From NCBI RefSeq assembly GCF_030013205.1, contig NZ_CP122648.1: a DNA stretch of 64,000 nucleotides. One strand, written 5' to 3'. Below the pieces are notes generated by a model. It made no database searches and was not told the DNA's origin. It saw only the letters and a program-made list of their open reading frames with translations. How positions within the stretch are numbered: position 1 is the stretch's first letter; each line of letters starts with the position of its first letter. Shown piece after piece: positions 2,039-34,923 of the stretch. Source of the stretch: Escherichia coli (GTDB lineage: Bacteria; Pseudomonadota; Gammaproteobacteria; Enterobacterales; Enterobacteriaceae). The translations under genes were made by a program, and so were the position numbers.

Positions 2039-3925
2039 ATGTCAACCGGATTACGTTTCACACTGGAAGTGGACGGCCTGCCGCCGGATGCTTTTGCGGT
2101 GGTTTCCTTTCATCTGAACCAGTCACTCTCTTCGCTCTTTTCCCTCGATCTCTCCCTGGTCAGCCAGCAGTTTCTCTCCCTTGAATTTGCGCAGGTGCTG
2201 GACAAAATGGCCTACCTGACGATATGGCAGGGCGATGAAGTACAGCGCCGGGTGAAAGGCGTGGTGACCTGGTTTGAACTCGGGGAGAACGACAAAAACC
2301 AGATGCTGTACAGCATGAAGGTGCACCCGCCGCTGTGGCGTGCCGGTCTGCGCCAGAACTTCCGTATCTTCCAGAACGAGGACATCAAAAGCATCCTCGG
2401 CACGATGTTGCAGGAAAACGGGGTGACCGAATGGAGTCCGCTGTTCAGCGAGCCGCATCCTTCCCGTGAGTTTTGTGTCCAGTACGGTGAGACTGATTAC
2501 GATTTCCTGTGCCGGATGGCGGCGGAGGAAGGCATCTTCTTTTATGAGGAGCATGCTTACAAAAGTACCGACCAGAGCCTGGTGCTGTGCGACACAGTCC
2601 GCCATCTGCCCGAATCTTTTGAAATCCCATGGAACCCGAACACCCGTACCGAGGTGAGCACCCTCTGCATCAGCCAGTTCCGCTACAGCGCACAAATCCG
2701 CCCTTCTTCCGTGGTGACCAAAGACTACACCTTTAAACGCCCCGGCTGGGCCGGACGTTTTGAACAGGAAGGCCAGCACCAGGACTACCAGCGCACGCAG
2801 TATGAAGTGTATGACTACCCCGGACGTTTCAAGGGTGCCCACGGGCAGAACTTTGCCCGCTGGCAGATGGACGGCTGGCGAAACAATGCAGAAACCGCGC
2901 GGGGAATGAGTCGTTCGCCGGAGATATGGCCGGGACGACGAATTGTGCTGACGGGGCATCCGCAGGCGAACCTGAACCGGGAATGGCAGGTGGTGGCAAG
3001 TGAACTGCACGGCGAACAGCCACAGGCGGTGCCAGGACGGCAGGGAGCGGGGACGGCGCTGGAGAACCATTTTGCGGTGATCCCGGCAGACAGAACATGG
3101 CGACCACAGCCGTTGCTGAAACCGCTGGTCGACGGCCCGCAGAGCGCTGTCGTGACAGGACCGGCAGGCGAGGAAATCTTCTGCGACGAACATGGTCGCG
3201 TGCGGGTGAAGTTCAACTGGGACCGTTATAACCCGGCAGACCAAGACAGTTCGTGCTGGATCCGTGTGGCACAGGCGTGGGCAGGCACCGGTTTTGGCCA
3301 CCTGGCGATACCACGTGTGGGTCAGGAAGTCATTGTGGACTTCCTCAACGGCGATCCGGACCAGCCGATCATTATGGGGCGCACCTACCACCAGGAAAAC
3401 CGCCCCCCCGGCAGCCTGCCGGGAACAAAGACGCAGATGACCATCCGCTCCAAAACGTACATGGGCAGCGGATTTAATGAGCTGAAGTTTGATGATGCGA
3501 CAGGGAGAGAACAGGTCTACATCCACGCGCAGAAGAACATGGATACCGAAGTGCTCAACGACCGTACCACCACCGTAAAACACGATCACCGCGAAACCGT
3601 AAAAAATGACCAGACGGTCACGATCCAGGAAGGTAACCGCCTTCTTACGGTGGAAAAAGGCCACAAGATCACCGGAGTACTGAAAGGGTCTTTATCTGAG
3701 GATGTCTTTCAGGACAGAGGCACGATTGCCGGTTCGGTGCATGTTGACGCTGTAAACAATGGTGGCGAAGGCGACGGTATACAGGCTTATACGGCGATTA
3801 AGGAAATTTTGCTGGCCGTGGAGGAAAGCAAAATTGCGCTGACGCCGGATGGCATTCAGCTACAGGTCGGGGAATCGACGGTACCGGATCACAGGTGTCA
3901 GTCACACCGACGGGATCCGGCTTAA
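2039..3925 (+). CDS. vgrG: VgrG-family type VI secretion spike protein, apparently C-terminally truncated
   Basis: 628-aa ORF with a GGAGG ribosome-binding site; N-terminus MSTGLRFTLEVDGLPPDAF typical of E. coli VgrG; gp27-like and gp5 OB-fold regions recognisable; ORF ends shortly after the start of the beta-helix repeat region and overlaps the Rhs ORF in another frame. Confidence 0.85.
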   Translation: MSTGLRFTLEVDGLPPDAFAVVSFHLNQSLSSLFSLDLSLVSQQFLSLEFAQVLDKMAYLTIWQGDEVQRRVKGVVTWFELGENDKNQMLYSMKVHPPLWRAGLRQNFRIFQNEDIKSILGTMLQENGVTEWSPLFSEPHPSREFCVQYGETDYDFLCRMAAEEGIFFYEEHAYKSTDQSLVLCDTVRHLPESFEIPWNPNTRTEVSTLCISQFRYSAQIRPSSVVTKDYTFKRPGWAGRFEQEGQHQDYQRTQYEVYDYPGRFKGAHGQNFARWQMDGWRNNAETARGMSRSPEIWPGRRIVLTGHPQANLNREWQVVASELHGEQPQAVPGRQGAGTALENHFAVIPADRTWRPQPLLKPLVDGPQSAVVTGPAGEEIFCDEHGRVRVKFNWDRYNPADQDSSCWIRVAQAWAGTGFGHLAIPRVGQEVIVDFLNGDPDQPIIMGRTYHQENRPPGSLPGTKTQMTIRSKTYMGSGFNELKFDDATGREQVYIHAQKNMDTEVLNDRTTTVKHDHRETVKNDQTVTIQEGNRLLTVEKGHKITGVLKGSLSEDVFQDRGTIAGSVHVDAVNNGGEGDGIQAYTAIKEILLAVEESKIALTPDGIQLQVGESTVPDHRCQSHRRDPA

Positions 3926-6900
3926 ACTGACGTACCACGCCAGCGGCTACCTGAAAGCCATTCACCGCACGGATAACGGCATACAGACGCTGGCGACCTA
4001 CGAACAGGATGCGCGGGGGCGGCTGACAGAAGCGGATGCGCGGCTGGACTACCACCTGTTTTATGAGTACGACGCTGCGGACCGGATCATCCGCTGGTCC
4101 GATAACGACCAGACGTGGAGCCGTTTCACCTACGATGAACAGGGCCGGTGCGTGAATGTCACCGGGGCGGAGGGCTATTACAACGCCACGCTGGACTATG
4201 GTGACGGCTGCACCACCGTGACGGACGGCAAGGGCATTCACCGTTATTACTATGATCCTGACGGCAATATTCTGCGGGAAGCAGCGCCGGACGGCAGCAC
4301 CACCATGTATGAATGGGATGAATTCCATCACCTGCTGGCCCGTCACTCCCCTGCCGGGCGGGTGGAGAAATTTGAATACAACGCCGCACACGGTCAGTTA
4401 AGCCGTTACACGGCGGCAGACGGCGCGGAGTGGCAGTACCGCTATGATGAGCGCGGCCTGCTCAGCAACATCACCGACCCTGCCGGGCAGACGTGGACAC
4501 AGCAGTGTGATGAACGCGGCCTGCCGGTAAGTCTGGTGTCGCCACAGGGCGAAGAGACCCGGCTGGCATACACCGCTCAGGGGCTGCTGTCGGGAATATT
4601 CCGCCAGGATGAACGGCGTCTGGGCATAGAGTACGACCACCACAACCGGCCGGAAACACTCACCGACGTGATGGGCCGTGAACACCACACCGAATACAGC
4701 GGTCACGACCTGCCGGTGAAGATGCGCGGCCCCGGCGGTCAGTCAGTGCGGTTACAGTGGCAGCAGCACCATAAACTGAGCGGCATTGAACGTGCTGGAA
4801 CCGGCGCGGAAGGATTCCGCTACGACCGCCACGGCAACCTGCTGGCCTGGACGGACGGCAACGGCGTTGTCTGGACAATGGAATACGGCCCGTTTGATTT
4901 GCCGGTGGCGCGAACGGACGGTGAAGGCCACCGCTGGCAGTACCGCTACGATAAAGACACGCTGCAACTGACAGAAGTCATTAACCCGCAGGGTGAGTCA
5001 TATCTTTATGTTCTGGATAACTGCGGCCGGGTGACGGAAGAGCATGACTGGGGCGGCGTGGTCTGGCGTTACCGCTATGACGCCGATGGCCTGTGTACCG
5101 CCAGGGTCAACGGCCTGGAGGAAACCATCCTCTACAGCCGGGACGCCGCAGGCCGCCTGGCAGAAGTCATCACGCCGGAAGGCAAAACGCAGTATGCGTA
5201 TGACAAATCCGGCAGGCTTACGGGTATCTTCAGCCCGGACGGCACATCACAGCGCACCGGCTATGACGAACGCGGGCGGGTGAATGTCACCACTCAGGGC
5301 CGACGGGCCATTGAATACCACCACCCCGATGAACACACCGTCATCCGCTGTATCCTGCCACCGGAAGATGAACGCGACAGACACCCCGGTGAATCCCTGC
5401 TGAAAACCACGTACCGCTACAACGCCGCCGGAGAACTGACGGAGGTTATCCTGCCGGGGGATGAGACGCTGACGTTCAGCCGTGATGAGGCAGGACGTGA
5501 AGTGCTCCGGCACAGTAACCGGGGTTTTGCCTGTGAACAGGGCTGGAATGCAGCCGGCCAGTCTGTCAGCCAGCGCGCCGGATTTTTCCCGGAAGAAGCC
5601 ACATGGGGCGGGCTGGTTCCGTCACTGGCGCGGGAATACCGTTATGACAGCGCGGGCAATGTGTCGGCTGTCACCAGCCGGGAAGATTACGGACGGGAAA
5701 CACGGCGGGAATACCGGCTGGACCGGAACGGCCAGGTCACGGCGGTGACAGCCTCAGGCACCGGGCTGGGCTATGGCGAAGGCGATGAGTCCTATGGCTA
5801 TGACAGCTGCGGCTACCTGAAGGCGCAGTCTGCGGGCTGGCACCGGATAAGTGAAGAGACTGACCAGTATGCCGGAGGCCACCGGCTGAAACAGGCCGGA
5901 AACACGCAGTATGACTATGACGCCGCAGGCCGGATGGTCAGCCGCACCAGACACCGTGACGGCTATCGCCCGGAAACAGAGCGGTTCCGGTGGGACAGCC
6001 GTGACCAGCTGACCGGGTATTGCAGCGCACAGGGTGAGCAGTGGGAATACCGCCACGACGCCAGCGGCAGACGAACAGAGAAACGCTGCGACCGGAAGAA
6101 AATCCGCTTCACGTATCTGTGGGACGGCGACAGTATTGCGGAAATCCGGGAATACCGCGATGATAAACTGTACAGCGTACGGCACCTGGTGTTTAACGGC
6201 TTTGAGCTGATAAGCCAGCAGTTCAGCCGGGTACGGCAGGCGCATCCGTCGGTGGCCCCGCAGTGGGTGACACGGACGAATCATGCGGTGAGCGACCTGA
6301 CGGGCCGTCCGCTGATGCTCTTTAACAGTGAAGGTAAAACCGTCTGGCGACCGGGACAGACCAGCCTGTGGGGGCTGGCACTCAGCCTGCCCGCAGACAC
6401 CGGCTACCCGGACCCGCGCGGGGAACTGGACCCGGAAGCCGACCCCGGCCTGCTGTATGCGGGACAGTGGCAGGATGCAGAATCCGGGCTGTGCTATAAC
6501 CGGTTCCGGTATTACGAGCCGGAAACCGGGATGTACCTGGTGAGTGATCCGCTGGGGTTGCTGGGGGGTGAGCAGACTTACCGGTATGTGCCAAATCCGT
6601 GTGGGTGGGTTGATCCGCTGGGATTGGCTGCAAGTTCTAAAATCAGCAGTTTGATGGACTATATTGGCGATGGTCGTCGTGTTAGTGGGCATACGGGTTT
6701 CCTGGATGGGGTTCGTTTATCACGTAGTCAAATAAACAATATTGCTAAAGAAATGGAGAAGCTAGGAATTAAAGTAATAAGGAAAGCAGATAAATATTTG
6801 CCACCAAATGCTAGGGCAGCTTTTGATTATGGCCTTCGCAATATTTATCTTAGGAAAAATGCCACCTTATATGAGGTGTATCATGAAGTGATTCATGCTA

Positions 6901-7079
6901 AGCAATTTGCGAAAATTGGACGAGAAGCATACGAAGCACTAGGACGTTTATCTAGGGAGGAACACGTTCTAAATGAAATATTAAAAAGTAAAAATTTATT
7001 CAATGAAGCGGAAATAGCTCATGCCATAAAATATGTTGAGGGATTGAGAGAAAAATTCATGATGGGACTAATAAATTGA
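3849..7079 (+). CDS. Rhs-family YD-repeat protein lacking the usual N-terminal region, with a C-terminal HExxH-containing tip
   Basis: 1076-aa ORF full of YD repeats (e.g. RYDxxGRL, YxYDxxG); core ends in the hallmark PNPCGWVDPLGL motif (~6590-6630), followed by a ~149-aa AT-rich tip containing HEVIH (6882-6896). The first ATG is inside the repeat region and no PAAR-like N-terminus is present, so this may be a fragment or pseudogene. Confidence 0.8.
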   Translation: MAFSYRSGNRRYRITGVSHTDGIRLKLTYHASGYLKAIHRTDNGIQTLATYEQDARGRLTEADARLDYHLFYEYDAADRIIRWSDNDQTWSRFTYDEQGRCVNVTGAEGYYNATLDYGDGCTTVTDGKGIHRYYYDPDGNILREAAPDGSTTMYEWDEFHHLLARHSPAGRVEKFEYNAAHGQLSRYTAADGAEWQYRYDERGLLSNITDPAGQTWTQQCDERGLPVSLVSPQGEETRLAYTAQGLLSGIFRQDERRLGIEYDHHNRPETLTDVMGREHHTEYSGHDLPVKMRGPGGQSVRLQWQQHHKLSGIERAGTGAEGFRYDRHGNLLAWTDGNGVVWTMEYGPFDLPVARTDGEGHRWQYRYDKDTLQLTEVINPQGESYLYVLDNCGRVTEEHDWGGVVWRYRYDADGLCTARVNGLEETILYSRDAAGRLAEVITPEGKTQYAYDKSGRLTGIFSPDGTSQRTGYDERGRVNVTTQGRRAIEYHHPDEHTVIRCILPPEDERDRHPGESLLKTTYRYNAAGELTEVILPGDETLTFSRDEAGREVLRHSNRGFACEQGWNAAGQSVSQRAGFFPEEATWGGLVPSLAREYRYDSAGNVSAVTSREDYGRETRREYRLDRNGQVTAVTASGTGLGYGEGDESYGYDSCGYLKAQSAGWHRISEETDQYAGGHRLKQAGNTQYDYDAAGRMVSRTRHRDGYRPETERFRWDSRDQLTGYCSAQGEQWEYRHDASGRRTEKRCDRKKIRFTYLWDGDSIAEIREYRDDKLYSVRHLVFNGFELISQQFSRVRQAHPSVAPQWVTRTNHAVSDLTGRPLMLFNSEGKTVWRPGQTSLWGLALSLPADTGYPDPRGELDPEADPGLLYAGQWQDAESGLCYNRFRYYEPETGMYLVSDPLGLLGGEQTYRYVPNPCGWVDPLGLAASSKISSLMDYIGDGRRVSGHTGFLDGVRLSRSQINNIAKEMEKLGIKVIRKADKYLPPNARAAFDYGLRNIYLRKNATLYEVYHEVIHAKQFAKIGREAYEALGRLSREEHVLNEILKSKNLFNEAEIAHAIKYVEGLREKFMMGLIN

Positions 7080-7327
7080 TAAAACATAACAAAATAACTA
7101 TCGAAATGGCTCTTGACTTGGCTCGGCGTGAGTTAGAGTTAAGGGAAATTCCTTATATTAAAAATAGTCTACATGCCAATTACAGCTATAAATCTATTAG
7201 TATTGGTTCTAAGCAAGGTTGGTTAATTTCAGCGAAATTAAAAGTCCCTGAAACTTTTGAGCCTGATATGATATTTATTGAGATATCTGACCCAGAAGGT
7301 TTTATTAATATTCCTGATGTATTATAA
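7076..7327 (+). CDS. Small ORF immediately downstream of the Rhs tip; candidate cognate immunity protein
   Basis: 83-aa ORF with a TTG start overlapping the Rhs stop (alternative ATG at 7106); AT-rich like the toxin tip; position is the classic rhs-immunity arrangement. Function inferred from context only. Confidence 0.45.
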   Translation: MIKHNKITIEMALDLARRELELREIPYIKNSLHANYSYKSISIGSKQGWLISAKLKVPETFEPDMIFIEISDPEGFINIPDVL

Positions 7328-7789: not shown

Positions 7790-9010
7790 TTACCTGAAGC
7801 TGTTTTTTATTGCTTATACATGATCAAATACTCCTTACATAATTAAGGAGAACAAAATGGAACTTAAAAAATTGATGGAACATATTTCTATTATTCCCGA
7901 TTACAGACAAGCCTGGAAAGTGGAACATAAATTATCGGATATTCTATTGTTGACTATTTGTGCCGTTATTTCTGGTGCGGAAGATTGGGAAGATATAGAG
8001 GATTTTGGGGAAACACATCTCGATTTTTTGAAGCAATATGGTGATTTTGAAAATGGTATTCCTGTTCACGATACCATTGCCAGAGTTGTATCCTGTATCA
8101 GTCCTGCAAAATTTCACGAGTGCTTTATTAACTGGATGCGTGACTGCCATTCTTCAGATGATAAAGACGTCATTGCAATTGATGGAAAAACGCTCCGGCA
8201 CTCTTATGACAAGAGTCGCCGCAGGGGAGCGATTCATGTCATTAGTGCGTTCTCAACAATGCACAGTCTGGTCATCGGACAGATCAGGACGGATGAGAAA
8301 TCCAATGAGATTACAGCTATCCCAGAACTTCTTAACATGCTGGATATTAAAGGAAAAATCATCACAACTGATGCGATGGGTTGCCAGAAAGATATTGCAG
8401 AGAAGATACAAAAACAGGGAGGTGATTATTTATTCGCGGTAAAAGGAAACCAGGGGCGGCTAAATAAAGCCTTCGAGGAAAAATTTCCGCTGAAAGAATT
8501 AAATAATCCAGAGCATGACAGTTACGCAATGAGTGAAAAGAGTCACGGCAGAGAAGAAATCCGTCTTCACATTGTTTGCGATGTCCCTGATGAACTTATT
8601 GATTTCACGTTTGAATGGAAAGGTCTGAAGAAATTATGCGTGGCAGTCTCCTTTCGGTCAATAATAGCAGAACAAAAGAAAGAGCCAGAAATGACGGTCA
8701 GATATTATATTAGTTCTGCTGATTTAACCGCAGAGAAGTTCGCCACAGCAATCCGAAACCACTGGCACGTGGAGAATAAGCTGCACTGGCGTCTGGACGT
8801 GGTAATGAATGAAGACGACTGCAAAATAAGAAGAGGAAATGCAGCAGAATTATTTTCAGGGATACGGCACATCGCTATTAATATTTTGACGAATGATAAG
8901 GTATTCAAGGCAGGGTTAAGACGTAAGATGCGAAAAGCAGCCATGGACAGAAACTATCTGGCGTCAGTCCTTGCGGGGAGCGGGCTTTCGTAATCTTGCC
9001 CTGCCTGCTC
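7790..9010. mobile_element. H-repeat (ISAs1-family) element; boundaries approximate
   Basis: Contains the 378-aa H-repeat transposase gene; this type of element is known to accompany Rhs elements. Ends were not mapped. Confidence 0.6.
7857..8993 (+). CDS. ISAs1-family (H-repeat-associated) transposase
   Basis: 378-aa ORF with AAGGAG ribosome-binding site; sequence [32 protein letters not shown] matches the YhhI/YdcC H-rpt protein family as I recall it. Confidence 0.85.
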
Positions 9011-16295: not shown

Positions 16296-16340
16296 AGGAC
16301 AAAGCGGAAACGGATAAGACGGGGATAAATGAAGAAGAAA

Positions 16341-16385
16341 TGGCGCGCCCTGCAGGATTCGAACCTGCGGCCCACGACTTAGAAG
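16341..16385. repeat. Direct repeat of the tRNA-Arg 3' end (distal att site of the argU island)
   Basis: 45 nt identical to 26672-26716 (the 3' part of argU). Confidence 0.9.
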
Positions 16386-16808
16386 TTCCTAGAACGACAT
16401 TTTAAGTCAACAACTTACCACGCCATCTCTGCGCTCACACGTCCCACTACCTCAAAACATGTAAAGCCTTGCAAGCCATTGTGAGGCCTTATGTGTCTCA
16501 GTTTTGTCCCTCTTTTTTGTACTAAAAAACATAGTAATTGAGGATAAACCTCATGCTATTTTCGCTTATATGCCTCTAAAGGCATGGCACTTAAATAGAT
16601 AAAAGCACCACAAAAGCATAAAAAAACCACACAGTAAAACCACAATATGAAACAATAACAGATAATTAAACTAAAAACAGATAGCGCATTGTGATAATCA
16701 TTCAATACTAAACAAAATATAAACAGTGGAGCAATATGTAATTGACTCATTAAGTTAGATATAAAAAATACATATTCAATCATTAAAACGATTGAATGGA
16801 GAACTTTT

Positions 16809-17762
16809 ATGCGGGCGAAACTTCTGGGAATAGTCCTGACAACCCCTATTGCGATCAGCTCTTTTGCTTCTACCGAGACTTTATCGTTTACTCCTGACAA
16901 CATAAATGCGGACATTAGTCTTGGAACTCTGAGCGGAAAAACAAAAGAGCGTGTTTATCTAGCCGAAGAAGGAGGCCGAAAAGTCAGTCAACTCGACTGG
17001 AAATTCAATAACGCTGCAATTATTAAAGGTGCAATTAATTGGGATTTGATGCCCCAGATATCTATCGGGGCTGCTGGCTGGACAACTCTCGGCAGCCGAG
17101 GTGGCAATATGGTCGATCAGGACTGGATGGATTCCAGTAACCCCGGAACCTGGACGGATGAAAGTAGACACCCTGATACACAACTCAATTATGCCAACGA
17201 ATTTGATCTGAATATCAAAGGCTGGCTCCTCAACGAACCCAATTACCGCCTGGGACTCATGGCCGGATATCAGGAAAGCCGTTATAGCTTTACAGCCAGA
17301 GGTGGTTCCTATATCTACAGTTCTGAGGAGGGATTCAGAGATGATATCGGCTCCTTCCCGAATGGAGAAAGAGCAATCGGCTACAAACAACGTTTTAAAA
17401 TGCCCTACATTGGCTTGACTGGAAGTTATCGTTATGAAGATTTTGAGCTAGGTGGCACATTTAAATACAGCGGCTGGGTGGAAGCATCTGATAACGATGA
17501 GCACTATGACCCAGGAAAAAGAATCACTTATCGCAGTAAAGTCAAAGACCAAAATTACTATTTTGTTGCAGTCAATGCAGGTTATTACGTAACACCTAAC
17601 GCAAAAGTTTATGTTGAAGGCGCATGGAATCGGGTTACGAATAAAAAAGGTAATACTTCACTTTATGATCACAATGATAACACTTCAGACTACAGCAAAA
17701 ATGGTGCAGGCATAGAAAACTATAACTTCATCACTACTGCTGGTCTTAAGTACATCTTTTAA
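16809..17762 (+). CDS. ompT: Outer-membrane protease VII (omptin)
   Basis: 317-aa ORF with signal peptide and omptin beta-barrel sequence; location inside the argU prophage next to envY as in K-12 DLP12. Confidence 0.9.
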   Translation: MRAKLLGIVLTTPIAISSFASTETLSFTPDNINADISLGTLSGKTKERVYLAEEGGRKVSQLDWKFNNAAIIKGAINWDLMPQISIGAAGWTTLGSRGGNMVDQDWMDSSNPGTWTDESRHPDTQLNYANEFDLNIKGWLLNEPNYRLGLMAGYQESRYSFTARGGSYIYSSEEGFRDDIGSFPNGERAIGYKQRFKMPYIGLTGSYRYEDFELGGTFKYSGWVEASDNDEHYDPGKRITYRSKVKDQNYYFVAVNAGYYVTPNAKVYVEGAWNRVTNKKGNTSLYDHNDNTSDYSKNGAGIENYNFITTAGLKYIF

Positions 17763-17948
17763 CGAAGTTAACCAGATTCTCTCCCCGGTGGTATTGTATA
17801 ACCCCGGGGAATTTGTTTACAGTTACAAGTAGACAATATCCACTAATTTTGTAAGTATTTAACCTATGTCATAACGTGTAATCTCTTGCCGCAACACAAG
17901 ACCTCAATATATTCAAATTTTATCTTTATTCCGATATTCAGAGACACA

Positions 17949-19433
17949 ATGCGAAAAATAATTACTCATTTCAAAGTTGTTTTAACGTTACTTCTACCAG
18001 TAACCGTATCTGCCCAGCAGATACAGTGGCAATCCTGTATGGCCAGTCAATTCAACCACTGGTTTGGTGAGGAAAAACCGTCTCCTGACTTACTATGTGG
18101 TTATTTGTCTGTTCCATTAAAATATACAGACACAGGCGGAGATGCTTCTTATGAAAAAAAATCACAAGTCAAACTAGCGTTGACAAAATTGCCGGCAAAA
18201 AGCAAGCATAAAGGAAGTATCCTGATAATAAGTGGTGGTCCCGGGTTACCAGGCATAAATCCTTATATTAACTTTGACTGGCCAGTCACAAATCTTCGTG
18301 AGTCATGGGATATTATTGGATTTGATCCTCGAGGCGTCGGACAGTCCACTCCGACAATAAACTGCCGGCAATCAGATACAGAGACTCAGGAAAACATAAC
18401 CGAAAAGCAACAAGTATTAAATAAAATTAATGCCTGTATCCATAATACCGGAGCCGAAGTCATTCGCCATATCGGCTCTAACGAGGCTGTGTACGATATT
18501 GATCGTATTAGGCAAGCCTTGGGGGATAAACAACTGACAGCCGTGGCGTATTCGTATGGAACTCAAATTGCAGCCTTATATGCAGAACGTTTTCCCTACA
18601 ACGTAAGATCTATCGTTCTTGATGGAGTCGTCGATATCGATGACCTGGAGGACAACTTCACATGGCAACTCAAACAGGCACAGAGTTATCAGGAAACGTT
18701 TGATCGCTTTGCATCCTGGTGTGCGCGTACAAAAAGTTGCCCGCTTTCTTCAGACAGAGATAAGGCAATAACTCAGTTCCATGAGCTATTATCAAAATTA
18801 CATCACAAACCTTTATTAGACAGTAAGGGAGAAAATATATCTTCAGATGAACTCATATCATTAACAACAGACCTTCTGCTATGGCGTTCATCATGGCCAA
18901 CCCTTGCAACTGCCATACGCCAGTTCTCTCAGGGGATTGTCAGTAATGAAATTGAAACTGCGCTCAGTGCTCCGATAGCCTCAGAAGAGTCAAGCGATGC
19001 TTCGGGGGTAATCCTCTGTGTAGATCAGGGGGATGAGCAATTAACACCAGAAGAGCGAAAATCCCGAAAAGACGCTCTTGCGAATGCCTTCCCGGCTATT
19101 AACTTTGACAATGGACGTTCCGATTCACCTGATTTTTGTGAATTATGGCCAATACATAGCGACCTGAACAAAACTCGCCTGAAAAATATTGTTCTGCCCT
19201 CTGGTTTACTGTTTGTAGCACACAAATACGACCCAACAACGCCCTGGATTAATGCCCGTAAGATGGCAGAGAAATTTTCCAGCCCGTTACTAACAATAAA
19301 TGGTGATGGGCATACATTAGCTCTCACCGGAGTTAATTTATGTGTAGATAAAGCAGTTGTACATCACCTGATCACTCCACAAAAAATAGAAAATATATAC
19401 TGCCCAGGAAATTCTGAAGCAGAAATACAATAA
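17949..19433 (+). CDS. Secreted alpha/beta-hydrolase, S33/TAP-like peptidase family (putative)
   Basis: ATG at 17949 gives MRKIITHFKVVLTLLLPVTVSAQQ (signal peptide); nucleophile elbow VAYSYGTQ; size (~494 aa) and layout resemble proline iminopeptidase / tripeptidyl aminopeptidase-type hydrolases. Confidence 0.6.
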   Translation: MRKIITHFKVVLTLLLPVTVSAQQIQWQSCMASQFNHWFGEEKPSPDLLCGYLSVPLKYTDTGGDASYEKKSQVKLALTKLPAKSKHKGSILIISGGPGLPGINPYINFDWPVTNLRESWDIIGFDPRGVGQSTPTINCRQSDTETQENITEKQQVLNKINACIHNTGAEVIRHIGSNEAVYDIDRIRQALGDKQLTAVAYSYGTQIAALYAERFPYNVRSIVLDGVVDIDDLEDNFTWQLKQAQSYQETFDRFASWCARTKSCPLSSDRDKAITQFHELLSKLHHKPLLDSKGENISSDELISLTTDLLLWRSSWPTLATAIRQFSQGIVSNEIETALSAPIASEESSDASGVILCVDQGDEQLTPEERKSRKDALANAFPAINFDNGRSDSPDFCELWPIHSDLNKTRLKNIVLPSGLLFVAHKYDPTTPWINARKMAEKFSSPLLTINGDGHTLALTGVNLCVDKAVVHHLITPQKIENIYCPGNSEAEIQ

Positions 19434-19455
19434 TTTCAAAATATTCCGCTATTTG

Positions 19456-19495
19456 CTCCCAATGCAAAACATATATTGCATTGGGAGCATATTCA
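19456..19495 (+). terminator. Rho-independent terminator after the hydrolase gene
   Basis: Perfect 12-bp inverted repeat ctcccaatgcaa/ttgcattgggag with 9-nt loop, followed by a T-rich run. Confidence 0.7.
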
Positions 19496-19616
19496 TATTT
19501 TTGTTATTCTTGTATGAAATCGTCTCATGTACACGGTCCTTTTTTCGCCGAAAACTGATATTACTTTAATCAAAAGTTGACGTGCCAGATTCGAAGTAAA
19601 TTTATAAAATATCAAA

Positions 19617-19922
19617 TCAATATACATTTTGCACCTTCGAGATAGTAATGAATGTTACTGTAACATGAGTTACAAACAGCTTCATACCCAGAGCTACTGA
19701 TGTATCAACACGATTCAACAATACCCGATATTTATTCCATGCCTCCAGCAACGATCTTTCTTCCTCCGTTGCGATTTCCAGATCTACAGCATCCTGCAGT
19801 GGCGCAATATACTCACTGAATTCCTGGATGTAGAACTGTGTGGTGACGGTCTTCCAGCCATTCGGCTCCTGCTGTATCGAAGCATACCAGGCTATTTCAA
19901 TATCGCTATGCTGCGGCAGCAT
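19617..19922 (-). CDS. Hypothetical phage protein sharing a ~37-aa segment with the gene remnant at 20700-20867
   Basis: 101-aa ORF; the central segment [34 protein letters not shown] is encoded by one copy of the ~120-bp direct repeat. Confidence 0.4.
19699..19818. repeat. Direct repeat copy A (~120 bp, ~88% identical to copy B)
   Basis: Hand alignment to 20748-20867. Confidence 0.8.
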
Positions 19923-19978
19923 TTAACCCCTTGTAATTCATCGCCATAATTGATTTAATTCACAAATAAAACTATAAC

Positions 19979-20647
19979 ATGGTGAAATTAATGAAAAAAA
20001 ACACAGATGATGGGGCTAAAATTTACACACCACTTACCCTAAAGCTTTATGACTGGTGGGTTTTGGGAGTATCAAATCGGCTTGCATGGGGATGTACTAC
20101 AAAGGAACACCTTCTTCCACACTTTCTGGAACATTTAGGTAACAACCATCTGGATATTGGTGTTGGAACTGGGTTTTACCTTACTCACGTACCTGAGAGT
20201 AGTCTGATATCTTTAATGGATTTGAACGAAGCTAGCCTGAACGCGGCATCTACAAGGGCTGGGGAATCAAAAATTAAACATAAAATTAGCCATGATGTTT
20301 TTGAACCTTATCCCGCGGCGTTACATGGTCAATTTGATTCCATTTCCATGTTTTACCTTCTTCACTGCCTGCCTGGAAATATATCTACAAAAAGCTGTGT
20401 AATACGCAATGCGGCGCAGGCCTTAACTGACGATGGAACTCTATACGGAGCCACAATTCTTGGCGATGGAGTTGTGCACAATAGCTTCGGTCAAAAACTG
20501 ATGCGCATTTACAATCAGAAAGGCATCTTTTCAAACACAAAAGATTCCGAAGAAGGCTTAACACATATACTCTCAGAGCATTTCGAGAATGTTAAAACCA
20601 AGGTTCAAGGTACTGTAGTAATGTTTTCCGCTTCAGGGAAAAAATAG
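19979..20647 (+). CDS. Class I SAM-dependent methyltransferase (putative)
   Basis: 222-aa ORF with Rossmann motif I (LDIGVGTGFY); sits between the two direct repeats, opposite in orientation to neighbouring phage genes. Confidence 0.65.
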   Translation: MVKLMKKNTDDGAKIYTPLTLKLYDWWVLGVSNRLAWGCTTKEHLLPHFLEHLGNNHLDIGVGTGFYLTHVPESSLISLMDLNEASLNAASTRAGESKIKHKISHDVFEPYPAALHGQFDSISMFYLLHCLPGNISTKSCVIRNAAQALTDDGTLYGATILGDGVVHNSFGQKLMRIYNQKGIFSNTKDSEEGLTHILSEHFENVKTKVQGTVVMFSASGKK

Positions 20648-20654
20648 CATCCAA

Positions 20655-20687
20655 CCGCAGCACGTTCTTGCTTAAGACGTGCTGCGG
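20655..20687. terminator. Hairpin (11-bp perfect stem) between the methyltransferase gene and the gene remnant; likely bidirectional terminator
   Basis: ccgcagcacgt / acgtgctgcgg with 11-nt loop; T-run follows on the minus strand. Confidence 0.5.
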
Positions 20688-20747
20688 CATAATCCCAATG
20701 ATTACTCCCTGACAGGGTTCGTAGGCCACTCAATATCAGGTGCAGTT

Positions 20748-20867
20748 GATGTATCAACACGGTTCAGCAACACCCGATACTTTTTCCAGGCTTCCAGCAA
20801 TGAGGTTTCTTCCTCCGTTGCGATTTCCAGATCCACAGCATCCTGAAGTGGCGCAATATGCTCACTG
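20748..20867. repeat. Direct repeat copy B (~120 bp)
   Basis: Hand alignment to 19699-19818. Confidence 0.8.
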
Positions 20868-25594: not shown

Positions 25595-26656
25595 ATGTCA
25601 TTTATTAAAACTTTTTCCGGGAAGCATTTTTATTATGACAAGATAAATAAAGACGACATCGATATTAACGATATCGCGGTTTCCCTTTCAAATATCTGTC
25701 GCTTTGCCGGTCATCTTTCGCACTTCTACAGCGTCGCCCAACATGCGGTTCTTTGCAGCCAGCTGGTGCCGCAGGAATTTGCTTTTGAAGCGTTAATGCA
25801 TGATGCAACAGAAGCGTATTGCCAGGACATTCCCGCACCACTGAAACGCCTTCTTCCTGACTATAAACGGATGGAAGAAAAAATAGACGCCGTAATCCGT
25901 GAGAAATACGGGTTATCAACTCAGACAAAGGCAAAGCATCTTGCCATGATAAAGGCCATTCTCCGTGCTGCAGAACGCGACTGGAAGTGGCTGGAAAAAG
26001 CGCCTGTCATCAAGATACCAGCGGTCAGAAACAAGCGAGTCAGATGGCTGGAAAAGGAGGAAGCAAAACGCCTTATTGATGAGTGCCCCGAACCACTGAA
26101 ATCTGTCGTCAAGTTTGCGCTGGCAACTGGTCTGAGAAAGTCGAACATCATAAATCTGGAATGGCAACAAATCGACATGCAGCGACGAGTTGCCTGGGTG
26201 AATCCAGAAGAGAGCAAATCAAACCGCGCCATTGGTGTGGCGCTGAACGATACCGCCTGTAAAGTGTTGCGTGATCAAATAGGCAAGCATCACAAATGGG
26301 TGTTTGTACATACCAAGGCGGCTAAGCGAGCAGATGGAACATCAACGCCTGCGGTCAGGAAGATGCGCATCGACAGCAAGACATCATGGCTATCAGCTTG
26401 TCGTCGTGCAGGAATTGAAGATTTCCGTTTCCATGACCTCAGACACACCTGGGCAAGCTGGCTGATCCAGTCAGGCGTCCCATTATCTGTGCTTCAGGAA
26501 ATGGGCGGATGGGAGTCCATAGAAATGGTTCGTAGGTATGCTCACCTTGCGCCTAATCATTTGACAGAGCATGCAAGGAAAATAGACGACATTTTTGGTG
26601 ATAATGTCCCAAATATGTCCCACTGTGGAATTATGGAGGATATAAAGAAGGCGTAA
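25595..26656 (+). CDS. Chimeric ORF: YfdR-like HD-domain N-terminus fused in frame to a tyrosine-integrase catalytic domain (likely inactive integrase remnant)
   Basis: N-terminal ~105 aa [14 protein letters not shown]...[10 protein letters not shown] (HD motif); C-terminal ~240 aa with integrase signature [11 protein letters not shown]...VRRYAHL, ending 16 nt from the tRNA 3' end; the integrase arm/core-binding N-terminus is absent. Confidence 0.7.
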
Positions 26657-26671
26657 CTGATTGAATTGTAA

Positions 26672-26748
26672 TGGCGCGCCCTGCAGGATTCGAACCTGCG
26701 GCCCACGACTTAGAAGGTCGTTGCTCTATCCAACTGAGCTAAGGGCGC
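26672..26748 (-). tRNA. argU: tRNA-Arg (anticodon UCU)
   Basis: 77-nt sequence whose reverse complement is GCGCCCTTAGCTCAGTTGGATAGAGCAACGACCTTCTAAGTCGTGGGCCGCAGGTTCGAATCCTGCAGGGCGCGCCA; cloverleaf and UCU anticodon readable by eye. Confidence 0.93.
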
Positions 26749-31811: not shown

Positions 31812-32504
31812 TTAGTTTAAGTTCACTTCTCTGACCGGGGTTACTGAACCATAATCATTAACGGTCTGAAATTTCAGCTTTCCCTGCACTCCTGAGGGTA
31901 AGGGAATTTGTGAATTAACTCTGGGTGCAACCATAGCATTCCCCAGTTTTTGGCTGCCCACTTGCAGGTTAACCAGGGTGACATAAAAAGGTGATGGATT
32001 ATGAACATTGATATAGTTACCGGATCGCGAAAACTTGAGTGTGTCCGGCGCTTCTGCGGGTAATTCTTGTAGTTGAATTGGACGGAGAAATAACTTCATG
32101 CGCGATAAAATCGCCAGTTGCAAAACATTCCTGCCGTTCAATGCATTTTTATCTACCGAAGGGATCGTCTTAACATTCATCCAGAACAGAGACTCACGAT
32201 CTGCCGCCAGCGGTGGACCGGTGTAAATAATACGCAAGGTATTTTCGCTTTTGGGTTCACTAACAAACAGTGGCGGTGTAATGATGAATGACTTTTCTTT
32301 TACACCGCTGCTGTTTTCAATCCACGAATTGACCAGAAAGCGCTCATTGGTATGGCTATTTCTAATCCATACCGCAGTCTGTTTAGCATCAGCGGGATAA
32401 ATAATACGCGTGGCACCTAATGCGATCCCTCCGGCAGCATGGGCGCTGGTCGAAATGATTAAATAAAATATAATGAGCATCAATAACTTTATTTTAGTCA
32501 TCAT
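31812..32504 (-). CDS. sfmC: Periplasmic fimbrial chaperone
   Basis: 230-aa product from [23 protein letters not shown]; PapD-like chaperone position. Confidence 0.85.
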
Positions 32505-32722
32505 AGTTAATACGCCTTGTGTATTCCTGACGGCAAAAATAAGGAGTATAAAGAAATGATTGCTTTGGTTTCTTACACACATCATTCCCTTTTCATTTAA
32601 TAAAGCGGCATGATACAAAGTGAACGTGATTTCGATTTACATTGCCACCATACCGCTTCAGACAACCGGTACATTACTTTGTTATAAGACGTGATATATA
32701 ATTCAAAACAACGTGGTTTTGA

Positions 32723-33265
32723 TTATTCGTATCTCATAATAAAAGTCGCGTCAGCATTTGCTTGCCCTGCTGATGCACTTGTACCGGTGCCTTTATAACG
32801 TGCAGAAAAATGAAGAACGTTGGTCCCGGGGATCAAGTTCTGGTTGGTTGAGAAGCTATTCCCATCAGGTTTGAGAATTGCGGATGTATTATCAAGTATT
32901 TCAATACCGACACCCGTTGCTGTTGTTGTATTGGTACTGGATGCAATGGCCAATAAATTATCATTGATTGCATCAGCCTGACCAGAAAATGCAACGGCAG
33001 CATTAGCGGCAACAACAGGATCGCAGTCGTTCAACTGAATGGTGAATGGAATTAATGCAGAGGTATTACCAACAGCATTGAAAATATCGGTACGATATTG
33101 ACCGAGTGTGACAACCTGGTCTGCCGAGTCAGTATTCACTGAACAGGCAGCATTCACCAGTTCGCCTTCAAAGTGAATTGTACCGCCATCTACAATGGCA
33201 GCATAACTACCCGTAGCGGCGAATAGTGCGGCAGCCAGCGCAGACGAAATAAATCTTAATTTCAT
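32723..33265 (-). CDS. sfmA: Type 1-like major fimbrial subunit
   Basis: 180-aa product from [23 protein letters not shown]; first gene of the operon. Confidence 0.85.
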
Positions 33266-33735
33266 ATATATTCCTTCAATCTCATTTATCGACTCCACAT
33301 CCGTATATAACCGATTACTTTATTTAAGACACTGATAGTAGTAAATTCCTTTTTATCCTCTAAGAATGTCTTAATTGAAAATATGCACTCTATTCTAAAA
33401 AATAGAGAGCCCCGTTAGATGAATACTTCCGCGCAAAATATATTCAACACAAATATAGACCTGAAGCGGTAAATTACCAGGCTGAAAATTCTTTTTATAT
33501 TGTCAGGTATTTCTTAAATTATCTTAATCCTTAAACAAGGAAATAAATCAGTTCCAGATTTACAACGCCATCATGGACGAAAAATGAAGCTTTCAATCTC
33601 AGCGACAGTGCGCCTCACCTTCGCAAGAGGTCGCTTCACGCGATAAATCTGAAACGAAACCTGACAGCGCGCCCCGCTTCTGACAAAATAGGCGCATCCC
33701 CTTCGACCTACGTAACAGATGGAATCCTCTCTCTG

Positions 33736-34602
33736 ATGGCAGCAAAGATTATTGACGGTAAAACGATTGCGCAGCAGGTGCGCTCTGAAGTTGCTCAAAA
33801 AGTTCAGGCGCGTATTGCAGCCGGACTGCGGGCACCAGGACTGGCCGTTGTGCTGGTGGGTAGTAACCCTGCATCGCAAATTTATGTCGCAAGTAAACGC
33901 AAGGCTTGTGAAGAAGTCGGGTTCGTCTCCCGCTCTTATGACCTCCCGGAAACCACCAGCGAAGCGGAGCTGTTGGAGCTTATCGATGCGCTGAATGCCG
34001 ACAACACCATCGATGGCATTCTGGTTCAACTGCCGTTACCGGCGGGTATTGATAACGTCAAAGTGCTGGAACGTATTCATCCGGACAAAGACGTAGACGG
34101 TTTCCATCCTTATAACGTCGGTCGCCTGTGCCAGCGCGCGCCGCGTCTGCGTCCCTGCACCCCGCGCGGTATTGTCACGCTGCTTGAGCGTTACAACATT
34201 GATACCTTCGGCCTCAACGCCGTGGTGATTGGCGCATCGAATATCGTTGGCCGCCCGATGAGCATGGAACTGCTACTGGCAGGTTGCACCACCACCGTGA
34301 CTCACCGTTTCACTAAAAATCTGCGTCACCACGTAGAAAATGCCGATCTATTGATCGTTGCCGTCGGTAAGCCAGGCTTTATTCCCGGTGACTGGATCAA
34401 AGAAGGCGCAATTGTGATTGATGTCGGCATCAACCGTCTGGAAAATGGCAAAGTTGTGGGCGACGTCGTGTTTGAAGACGCGGCTAAACGCGCCTCATAC
34501 ATTACGCCTGTTCCCGGCGGCGTTGGCCCGATGACGGTTGCCACGCTGATTGAAAACACGCTACAGGCGTGCGTTGAATATCATGATCCACAGGGTGAGT
34601 AA
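33736..34602 (+). CDS. folD: Bifunctional methylenetetrahydrofolate dehydrogenase / methenyl-THF cyclohydrolase
   Basis: 288-aa [26 protein letters not shown]; full-length match to FolD as I recall it. Confidence 0.93.
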
Positions 34603-34603
34603 C

Positions 34604-34816
34604 ATGGCGACATTTTCTTTAGGTAAACATCCGCACGTTGAGCTGTGCGACTTGCTGAAACTGGAAGGCTGGAGCGAAAGCGGCGCGCAGGCGAAAATCG
34701 CGATTGCCGAAGGCCAGGTGAAAGTCGACGGTGCGGTTGAAACGCGCAAACGCTGCAAAATCGTTGCCGGGCAGACAGTGAGTTTTGCCGGTCACAGCGT
34801 ACAGATTGTTGCCTGA
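34604..34816 (+). CDS. ybcJ: S4-domain RNA-binding protein YbcJ
   Basis: 70-aa product from MATFSLGKHPHVEL directly after folD. Confidence 0.8.
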   Translation: MATFSLGKHPHVELCDLLKLEGWSESGAQAKIAIAEGQVKVDGAVETRKRCKIVAGQTVSFAGHSVQIVA

Positions 34817-34824
34817 TCCCTTTC

Positions 34825-34856
34825 CCGGCCTGTAACAACAGGCCGGTTCTCTTTTC
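34825..34856 (+). terminator. Rho-independent terminator after ybcJ
   Basis: ccggcctgt-aaca-acaggccgg stem-loop followed by a T-rich run. Confidence 0.7.
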
Positions 34857-34923
34857 AGACTTTTGCCCTCTACGCCCCGTTCATCCATGCTGATAGCATC
34901 GACATTTTGCCGAAGCGACCATC

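Follow-up and report, generated by a model that had tools for sequence, protein, structure and literature searches.

A predicted exported Hip1-like hydrolase paired with omptins on phages, plasmids and chromosomes of Escherichia coli

Proteases of the OmpT type serve widely as markers of virulence, and protein-expression strains have had OmpT removed; Hip1, a cell-envelope serine protease of family S33, is a validated virulence protease and drug target of Mycobacterium tuberculosis. In this study, we analysed a stretch of 64,000 nucleotides of Escherichia coli DNA (contig NZ_CP122648.1 of assembly GCF_030013205.1; hereafter the window), in which the omptin gene ompT is followed by the gene of a 494-residue α/β-hydrolase (hereafter the hydrolase), whose nearest characterized relative is Hip1. 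Two points are new: omptin and hydrolase form a conserved cassette on lambda-like phages and on the F plasmid, and the hydrolase is an uncharacterized addition to a known family. We found no published study characterizing an ompT-linked hydrolase; most subscription journals lay outside the literature searched, and an earlier description is possible. In a single cystitis isolate, Desloges et al. (2019) reported a gene under the name ‘ymcE’ at a distance of 186 bp downstream of ompT (PMC6854850, section 3.5); since the spacing to ompT is 186 nt in both cases, this ‘ymcE’ may be the hydrolase under a wrong name. Tiwari et al. (2023) linked the omptin gene ompP to cattle hosts, leaving the neighbour of ompP unmentioned (PMC10088187).

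Previous work indicates that Hip1 uses the catalytic triad S228/D463/H490, contains 11 cysteines with five predicted disulfides and is related to the tripeptidyl peptidases of Streptomyces (PMC4022732). The hydrolase is homologous to Hip1 over its full length and shares with it the fold (template-modelling (TM) score about 0.8), an aligned Ser-Asp-His triad, the motifs GGPG and DPxTP, some ten cysteines that could form five disulfides and, by prediction, export to the envelope. In contrast, the identity is only 27-30%, and the first glycine of the GxSxG motif is an alanine in the hydrolase (AYSYG), which belongs to a Gram-negative host, has a plain Sec signal peptide and is encoded on phages and plasmids beside an omptin. 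Furthermore, GroEL2 is a substrate of Hip1, whereas no such substrate is known for the E. coli enzyme. In the case of Tap, SlpD and SlpE of Streptomyces lividans (PF08386), the likeness, drawn through Pfam and PMC4022732, consists of the two-domain Pfam architecture and of being exported serine peptidases of family S33.

The cassette also resembles described mobile cargo. Like lom and bor of lambda and like ompT in the DLP12 prophage of K-12, it lies past the tail-fibre genes beside the attachment site, encodes envelope proteins, has its own terminator and was kept after prophage decay; however, the window holds a pair of enzyme genes, and DLP12 has appY in the place of the hydrolase. The arlABC genes (PI-6) on plasmids of adherent-invasive E. 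coli are likewise a mobile, omptin-centred multi-gene cassette, tied to resistance against defence peptides (PMC5053483, PMC6854850), but the partners are unrelated: ArlA is Mig-14-like, ArlB is an NAD-dependent epimerase, and the omptin is ArlC (PMC5053483). An identity of ArlB with the hydrolase is thereby ruled out.

Relationship of the hydrolase to Hip1

The first-pass annotation, which was made from the sequence alone, described a protein of about 494 amino acids directly downstream of the omptin, with a signal peptide, a nucleophile elbow (VAYSYGTQ) and a resemblance to S33/TAP-type aminopeptidases. The gene (17949-19433, plus strand) indeed encodes 494 residues, and its product was identified from Pfam, alignment and a structure model. 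It matches Abhydrolase_1 (3.3e-33, 115.8 bits, cut-off 25.8) and, in its C-terminal part, the TAP-like domain Abhydrolase_4 (3.8e-14, 53.1 bits, cut-off 21), so that the S33/TAP resemblance stands with both domains above their gathering scores and can be narrowed to Hip1 as the nearest characterized relative. This relative is an endoprotease and esterase and not a prolyl aminopeptidase; the prolyl aminopeptidase equivalog TIGR01249, which matched over a part only and scored 35.9 bits where 259.75 are required, was ruled out.

We aligned the hydrolase with 67 homologs reaching down to about 27% identity. The elbow VAYSYGTQ is present as described, and Ser202 within AYSYG is invariant, as is Asp428; His455 and Thr431 are kept in at least 90% of the homologs. 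The GGPG motif of the oxyanion hole occupies residues 96-99, of which Gly97, Pro98 and Gly99 are invariant and Gly96 is kept in at least 90%. Of the proteins with a solved structure, Hip1 (Rv2224c, CaeA) matched best in sequence (E 4.5e-51, residues 21-475). Ser202 (AYSYGT), Asp428 (YDPTTP) and His455 (GDGHT) align onto the S228, D463 and H490 motifs of Hip1, and the distance between Asp and His is 27 residues in both proteins. The catalytic triad, the absence of which from a structural model had been named as a point on which the assignment could fail, is thus conserved with respect both to Hip1 and to the homologs.

The AlphaFold2 model of the hydrolase has a mean predicted local distance difference test (pLDDT) value of 90.7 and a predicted TM score (pTM) of 0.91, with low confidence limited to the N-terminus and the last four residues. 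Strands on either side of a helical block (approximately residues 230-410) form an α/β core with an inserted helical cap. In a Foldseek comparison of the model with the PDB, six Hip1 entries came first (TM 0.73-0.81), followed by TnmK1 and TnmK2 and then by prolyl aminopeptidases. Domain search and structure prediction, two of the checks originally proposed, both support the S33/TAP-like family. We conclude from sequence and predicted structure that the hydrolase is a putatively intact catalyst of the branch of S33 that comprises Hip1 and the Streptomyces tripeptidyl peptidases, and we infer that a peptidase activity is likely.

The hydrolase could instead be an exported esterase, lipase or lactonase acting on lipids of the envelope or the host or on small esters, its link to the omptin being positional only. 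Hip1, originally reported as a carboxylesterase, hydrolyses p-nitrophenyl butyrate (PMC4022732), phage records label the gene ‘putative lactone hydrolase’, TnmK1 and TnmK2, which come next among the structural relatives, are non-peptidases, and an α/β fold by itself does not determine the substrate. We nevertheless consider this explanation unlikely: a TAP-like C-terminal domain and GGPG typify the peptidase branch of S33, proteases are found in the best-characterized relatives, namely Hip1 and the tripeptidyl peptidases of Streptomyces (PMC4022732), and the homolog of Serratia marcescens adjoins a family-5 peptide-binding protein.

The N-terminus of the hydrolase combines a charged segment, MRKIITHFK (+3), with a hydrophobic core, VVLTLLLPVTV (mean Kyte-Doolittle value 2.6), and a likely cleavage site between VSA and QQ. 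These features, which bear out the signal peptide of the first-pass annotation, assign residues 1-22 (17949-18014, plus strand) to a predicted Sec-type signal peptide, with pLDDT values of 51-60 over residues 1-20 of the model, and the mature protein is accordingly predicted to be exported to the periplasm. Exactly ten cysteines occur in the hydrolase, every one at a position conserved in the family; as judged from this pattern, they can form disulfides in the periplasm. In the RefSeq record of phage 2G7b (9091-10485) and in the PHROG family phrog_20134 (464 positions), the hydrolase begins at an internal codon. Such a start drops the signal peptide, so the predicted export of the hydrolase is hidden in both entries.

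Conservation and layout of the omptin-hydrolase cassette

The same pair was found in surroundings far removed from the window. A plasmid of a chicken isolate carries ompT and the hydrolase with 91.7% nucleotide identity over 16691-19517, between remnants of IS91 and IS3 and near iro genes, and a ColV-type plasmid carries them likewise. On the classical F plasmid (NC_002483), ompP (32322-33269) is followed by an ‘alpha/beta hydrolase’ (33374-34861); since F carries this paralogous pair, F+ strains of K-12 possess a copy of the enzyme family. Next to the F pair are the RepFIB replicon and two large genes for autotransporters. At a threshold of at least 95% identity, 158 plasmid records contain ompP and 170 contain the F-type hydrolase, most of them being conjugative IncF plasmids. 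All four of the relatives with 76-82% protein identity that were looked up (P0002, P0003, P0005 and P0006, on metagenomic or genomic contigs with surroundings unrelated to the window) lie directly downstream of a 315-residue omptin.

The two genes have also diverged together. Nonsynonymous divergence (dN) of omptin and hydrolase is correlated with r = 0.94 over 36 comparisons, which are not independent of each other; synonymous divergence (dS) reaches about 1 when the OmpT type is compared with the OmpP type. With dN/dS values of 0.12-0.19, the hydrolase is under purifying selection. Judged from these sequences, the pair is an old, co-diverging two-gene cassette consisting of omptin, short hairpin, hydrolase and strong terminator. 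The first-pass annotation had remarked on two hydrolases carried together as cargo, and this pairing proves to be no accident of one strain, as it recurs in phages, on F, on plasmids of the ColV/iro type and at a second site in O157:H7.

Conserved adjacency could also arise if hydrolase and omptin were functionally unrelated and were kept together by lying side by side in a short mobile segment copied en bloc. Insertion sequences often bound the cassette and would move both genes jointly, the distant homologs do not lie beside omptins, and OmpT works alone in K-12, many other ompT-positive genomes also being without the hydrolase. On the other hand, adjacency, order and orientation have survived divergence to a dS of about 1 or above and to protein identities of about 70-75%; the pair persists in phage, IncF plasmid, ColV-type plasmid and chromosome with both genes under purifying selection, and ompP and the F-type hydrolase are near-equal in their number of plasmid records. 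We therefore regard mere neighbourhood as possible and do not favour it.

Outside the omptin pairing, the homolog of Serratia fonticola (44% identity; positions 3185-5476 of locus L030, and locus L031) is prophage cargo that follows tail-fibre genes and a gene for an Ail/Lom protein. In Pseudomonas (locus L025), a gene for an outer-membrane β-barrel protein lies two genes upstream of the homolog. With these two cases in S. fonticola and Pseudomonas, the hydrolase family may be repeatedly paired with small outer-membrane barrels.

Within the cassette, ompT (16809-17762, plus strand) encodes an omptin outer-membrane protease of 317 residues (Pfam Omptin 3.4e-129; NCBIfam NF008222, 703.7 bits). 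The proximal upstream region (16691-16808, plus strand) travels with it, homology starting at 16696 in the O157:H7 copy and at 16691 in the plasmid copy. A spacer of 186 nt separates ompT from the start of the hydrolase. The mechanical list of open reading frames opens the hydrolase frame at a TTG (17886-19433); the ATG at 17949 is the start kept by all relatives in the alignment, with a GAGA/GGAG Shine-Dalgarno sequence ahead of it, and RefSeq also calls this ATG in a strain with 100% identity over the cassette region 17760-19620.

Folding of the RNA of 17763-17850 together with the alignment of variants placed a G+C-rich hairpin at 17782-17810 (plus strand); a hairpin of this kind directly follows the omptin stop codon in six of the six aligned cassette variants, including that of F ompP. 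The spacers of the ompP type measure 92-128 nt, mostly 92-104 nt (F included), and contain an AGGAG ribosome-binding site; because they leave little space for a separate promoter, read-through transcription is suggested. Promoter-like matches in the 186-nt spacer of the window type were no commoner than in shuffled sequence. At the end of the cassette, hairpin search and folding identified an intrinsic terminator (19454-19489, plus strand) with a 14-bp stem, seven G-C pairs and a T-rich tail; its folding energy of -27.9 kcal/mol (z = -6.1 against shuffles) agrees with the strong terminator noted earlier. The homology of the plasmid copy runs to 19517, slightly beyond this hairpin.

Prophage remnant at argU and distribution in E. 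coli

We found that two 47-bp direct repeats of argU (16339-16385 and 26670-26716, 100% identical) enclose an island of 10.3 kb. The first repeat, an attachment repeat between envY and ompT, is a partial 3′ end of argU and is 98% identical to argU of ST131; the second lies at the integration site itself, the tRNA-Arg (UCU) gene argU (26672-26748, minus strand; ARAGORN), which is adjoined by a truncated phage integrase gene (25910-26656, plus strand; RefSeq annotation of a near-identical strain with a shift of 2241 bases). Besides ompT and the hydrolase, the island holds a remnant of a tail-fibre assembly gene (19617-19922, minus strand; Pfam Caudo_TAP 9e-18, a partial tail fiber assembly protein in RefSeq), a ybcY-like class I S-adenosylmethionine (SAM)-dependent methyltransferase gene as further cargo (19979-20647, plus strand; Pfam methyltransferase domains) and e14-like regulatory genes. 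The genes envY, ybcH and nfrA lie outside it.

Intact phages carry the same cargo. The hydrolase occurs with 99.4-99.8% identity in eleven phage records representing nine distinct phages of 45-48 kb (2G7b, ev243, Turner, PhiR26_1, PhiR29_1, PhiR29_2, PhiR30_1, PhiR49_1 and PhiR49_1_star), and the gene order in 2G7b and PhiR26_1 is J-lom-stf-tfa-methyltransferase-tfa′-hydrolase-ompT-int, which places the hydrolase outside the modules for structure and replication. Compared with 2G7b, positions 16339-20821 of the window are 99.1% identical, and 25914-26716 correspond to the int-attP end with 99.5% identity; because of these stretches, the island is a decayed prophage of the 2G7b type with its cargo preserved. 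Together, the argU repeats and the phage records prove the cargo status supposed in the first-pass annotation: ompT and the hydrolase are cargo, of the lysogenic-conversion type, of argU-integrating lambda-like phages and belong to the region that runs from the tail-fibre genes to the attachment site. PHROGs families exist for all three cargo genes and are labelled ‘unknown function’. The ybcY-like methyltransferase gene is whole in the window and in phages 2G7b and PhiR26_1 and is frameshifted in K-12; in the window, it lies on the opposite strand between partial copies of the tail-fibre assembly gene (19698-19818 and 20747-20867, each with 89% identity to the counterpart of the other).

Exclusion genes are common among phage cargo, and the location of the cassette raises the question of whether it guards the lysogen or the plasmid host against other phages, through superinfection exclusion or defence. 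The hydrolase matches the PADLOC model PDLC01094 ‘TAP-like protein’ (1.1e-55), and the homolog of S. fonticola is also prophage cargo beside an Ail/Lom protein. However, PDLC01094 is a candidate model, no component of a known defence system adjoins the cassette, and the role of OmpT in cleaving cationic peptides is well known (PMC6854850). A function in phage defence thus appears very improbable.

The distribution of the cassette, another of the checks proposed at the outset, was counted in 5426 complete E. coli genomes. The hydrolase is present in 1253 and ompT in 3094 of them; 1212 of the hydrolase matches have at least 99% identity, and O157:H7, O26, O103:H2 and O111:H8 are among the positive strains. 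K-12 lacks the hydrolase: homology to the window ends at the stop codon of ompT (17762) and restarts at 19693, with a 1.6-kb appY segment in between. The absence of such a gene from DLP12, as stated in the first-pass annotation, was therefore confirmed, and a misplaced K-12 core gene is ruled out. The appY segment of K-12 (locus L003, 6955-8529) and the hydrolase segment (17763-19692) are alternative inserts at the same breakpoints, the first of which directly follows the stop codon of ompT, while the second falls within the tail-fibre assembly remnant. In ST131, the first 157 nt of the spacer between ompT and the hydrolase are kept and 17920-19895, with the hydrolase and the tail-fibre assembly remnant, is missing; because part of the spacer is retained, the ST131 form looks like a deletion from a hydrolase-bearing form and not like a separate origin. 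O157:H7 has the block 16696-19699 at a second chromosomal site, which is close to minCDE and surrounded by insertion sequences. Decaying cargo or a pseudogene was ruled out for the hydrolase, the frame being intact, dN/dS as low as given above, and 1233 of the 1261 matching records covering at least 80% of the query.

Elsewhere in the window, a type VI secretion tip gene (tssI/vgrG), a zincin-like toxin gene and then an ISEc1 transposase gene lie between cusS and nfrB. This stretch occupies about 2040-7080 and 7857-8993, coordinates that were derived by offset from the annotation of a related strain. In strain K_EC180, both genes are annotated as pseudogene fragments; the window is about 333 bases longer than K_EC180 at the junction of the two, and they may consequently form a single longer gene.

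Proposed role of the pair and its implications

On balance, we think it probable that the second gene of this omptin-containing phage cargo cassette encodes an exported Hip1-like S33 hydrolase that acts as a periplasmic peptidase alongside or after the omptin. OmpT cleaves cationic peptides (PMC6854850). In the proposed sequence of events, the omptin would act at the surface of the cell and cut cationic peptides and proteins there, and the hydrolase, as a peptidase in the periplasm, would then attack peptides or proteins of the envelope. Its most likely task would be to trim fragments that pass the outer membrane, which could complete their detoxification or provide short peptides for uptake. 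The hydrolase may be expressed on the omptin transcript by read-through of the hairpin between the two genes.

Several points weigh against such a joint role. OmpT is fully active in K-12, which has no hydrolase gene, so the omptin is independent of the hydrolase, and about 60% of the ompT-positive genomes are without an OmpT-type hydrolase, so the pairing is dispensable. Since OmpT works alone in K-12 and many genomes have ompT without the hydrolase, any cooperation would be optional. Adjacent genes on mobile DNA can stay tightly linked without a shared function. A tblastn search with OmpT found no omptin or omptin remnant near the homologs of 45-55% identity in Salmonella, Serratia, Budvicia, Providencia and Pseudomonas, which rules out a linkage reaching these distant homologs. 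Hip1 cuts proteins and peptides, and esters too (PMC4022732), and because of this ester hydrolysis a homology of 27-30% identity leaves the peptidase role unproven. As for transcription, the hairpin after the omptin could equally terminate the omptin transcript, and the 186-nt spacer of the window type has room for the hydrolase's own promoter.

In a more far-reaching version, which we hold to be doubtful, omptin and Hip1-like hydrolase would make up a mobile two-compartment proteolysis system, with an endoprotease at the surface and a matched peptidase in the periplasm, directed against host defence peptides or, in the manner of Hip1, processing a specific protein so as to alter host responses. 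If this were true, phages and conjugative plasmids, F included, would deliver the system to E. coli, and the specificities of both enzymes would co-evolve.

The cassette is a clean case of phage cargo that has outlived the decay of its phage. It also reveals an unnoticed companion gene of omptins, which is present in roughly one in four complete E. coli genomes, including the Shiga-toxin strains O157:H7, O26, O103 and O111, and on the F plasmid. Signals that associate ompP with particular hosts may partly stem from the neighbouring hydrolase. If the hydrolase cooperates with the omptin, knock-outs or complementations of ompT alone in pathogens may miss part of the phenotype.

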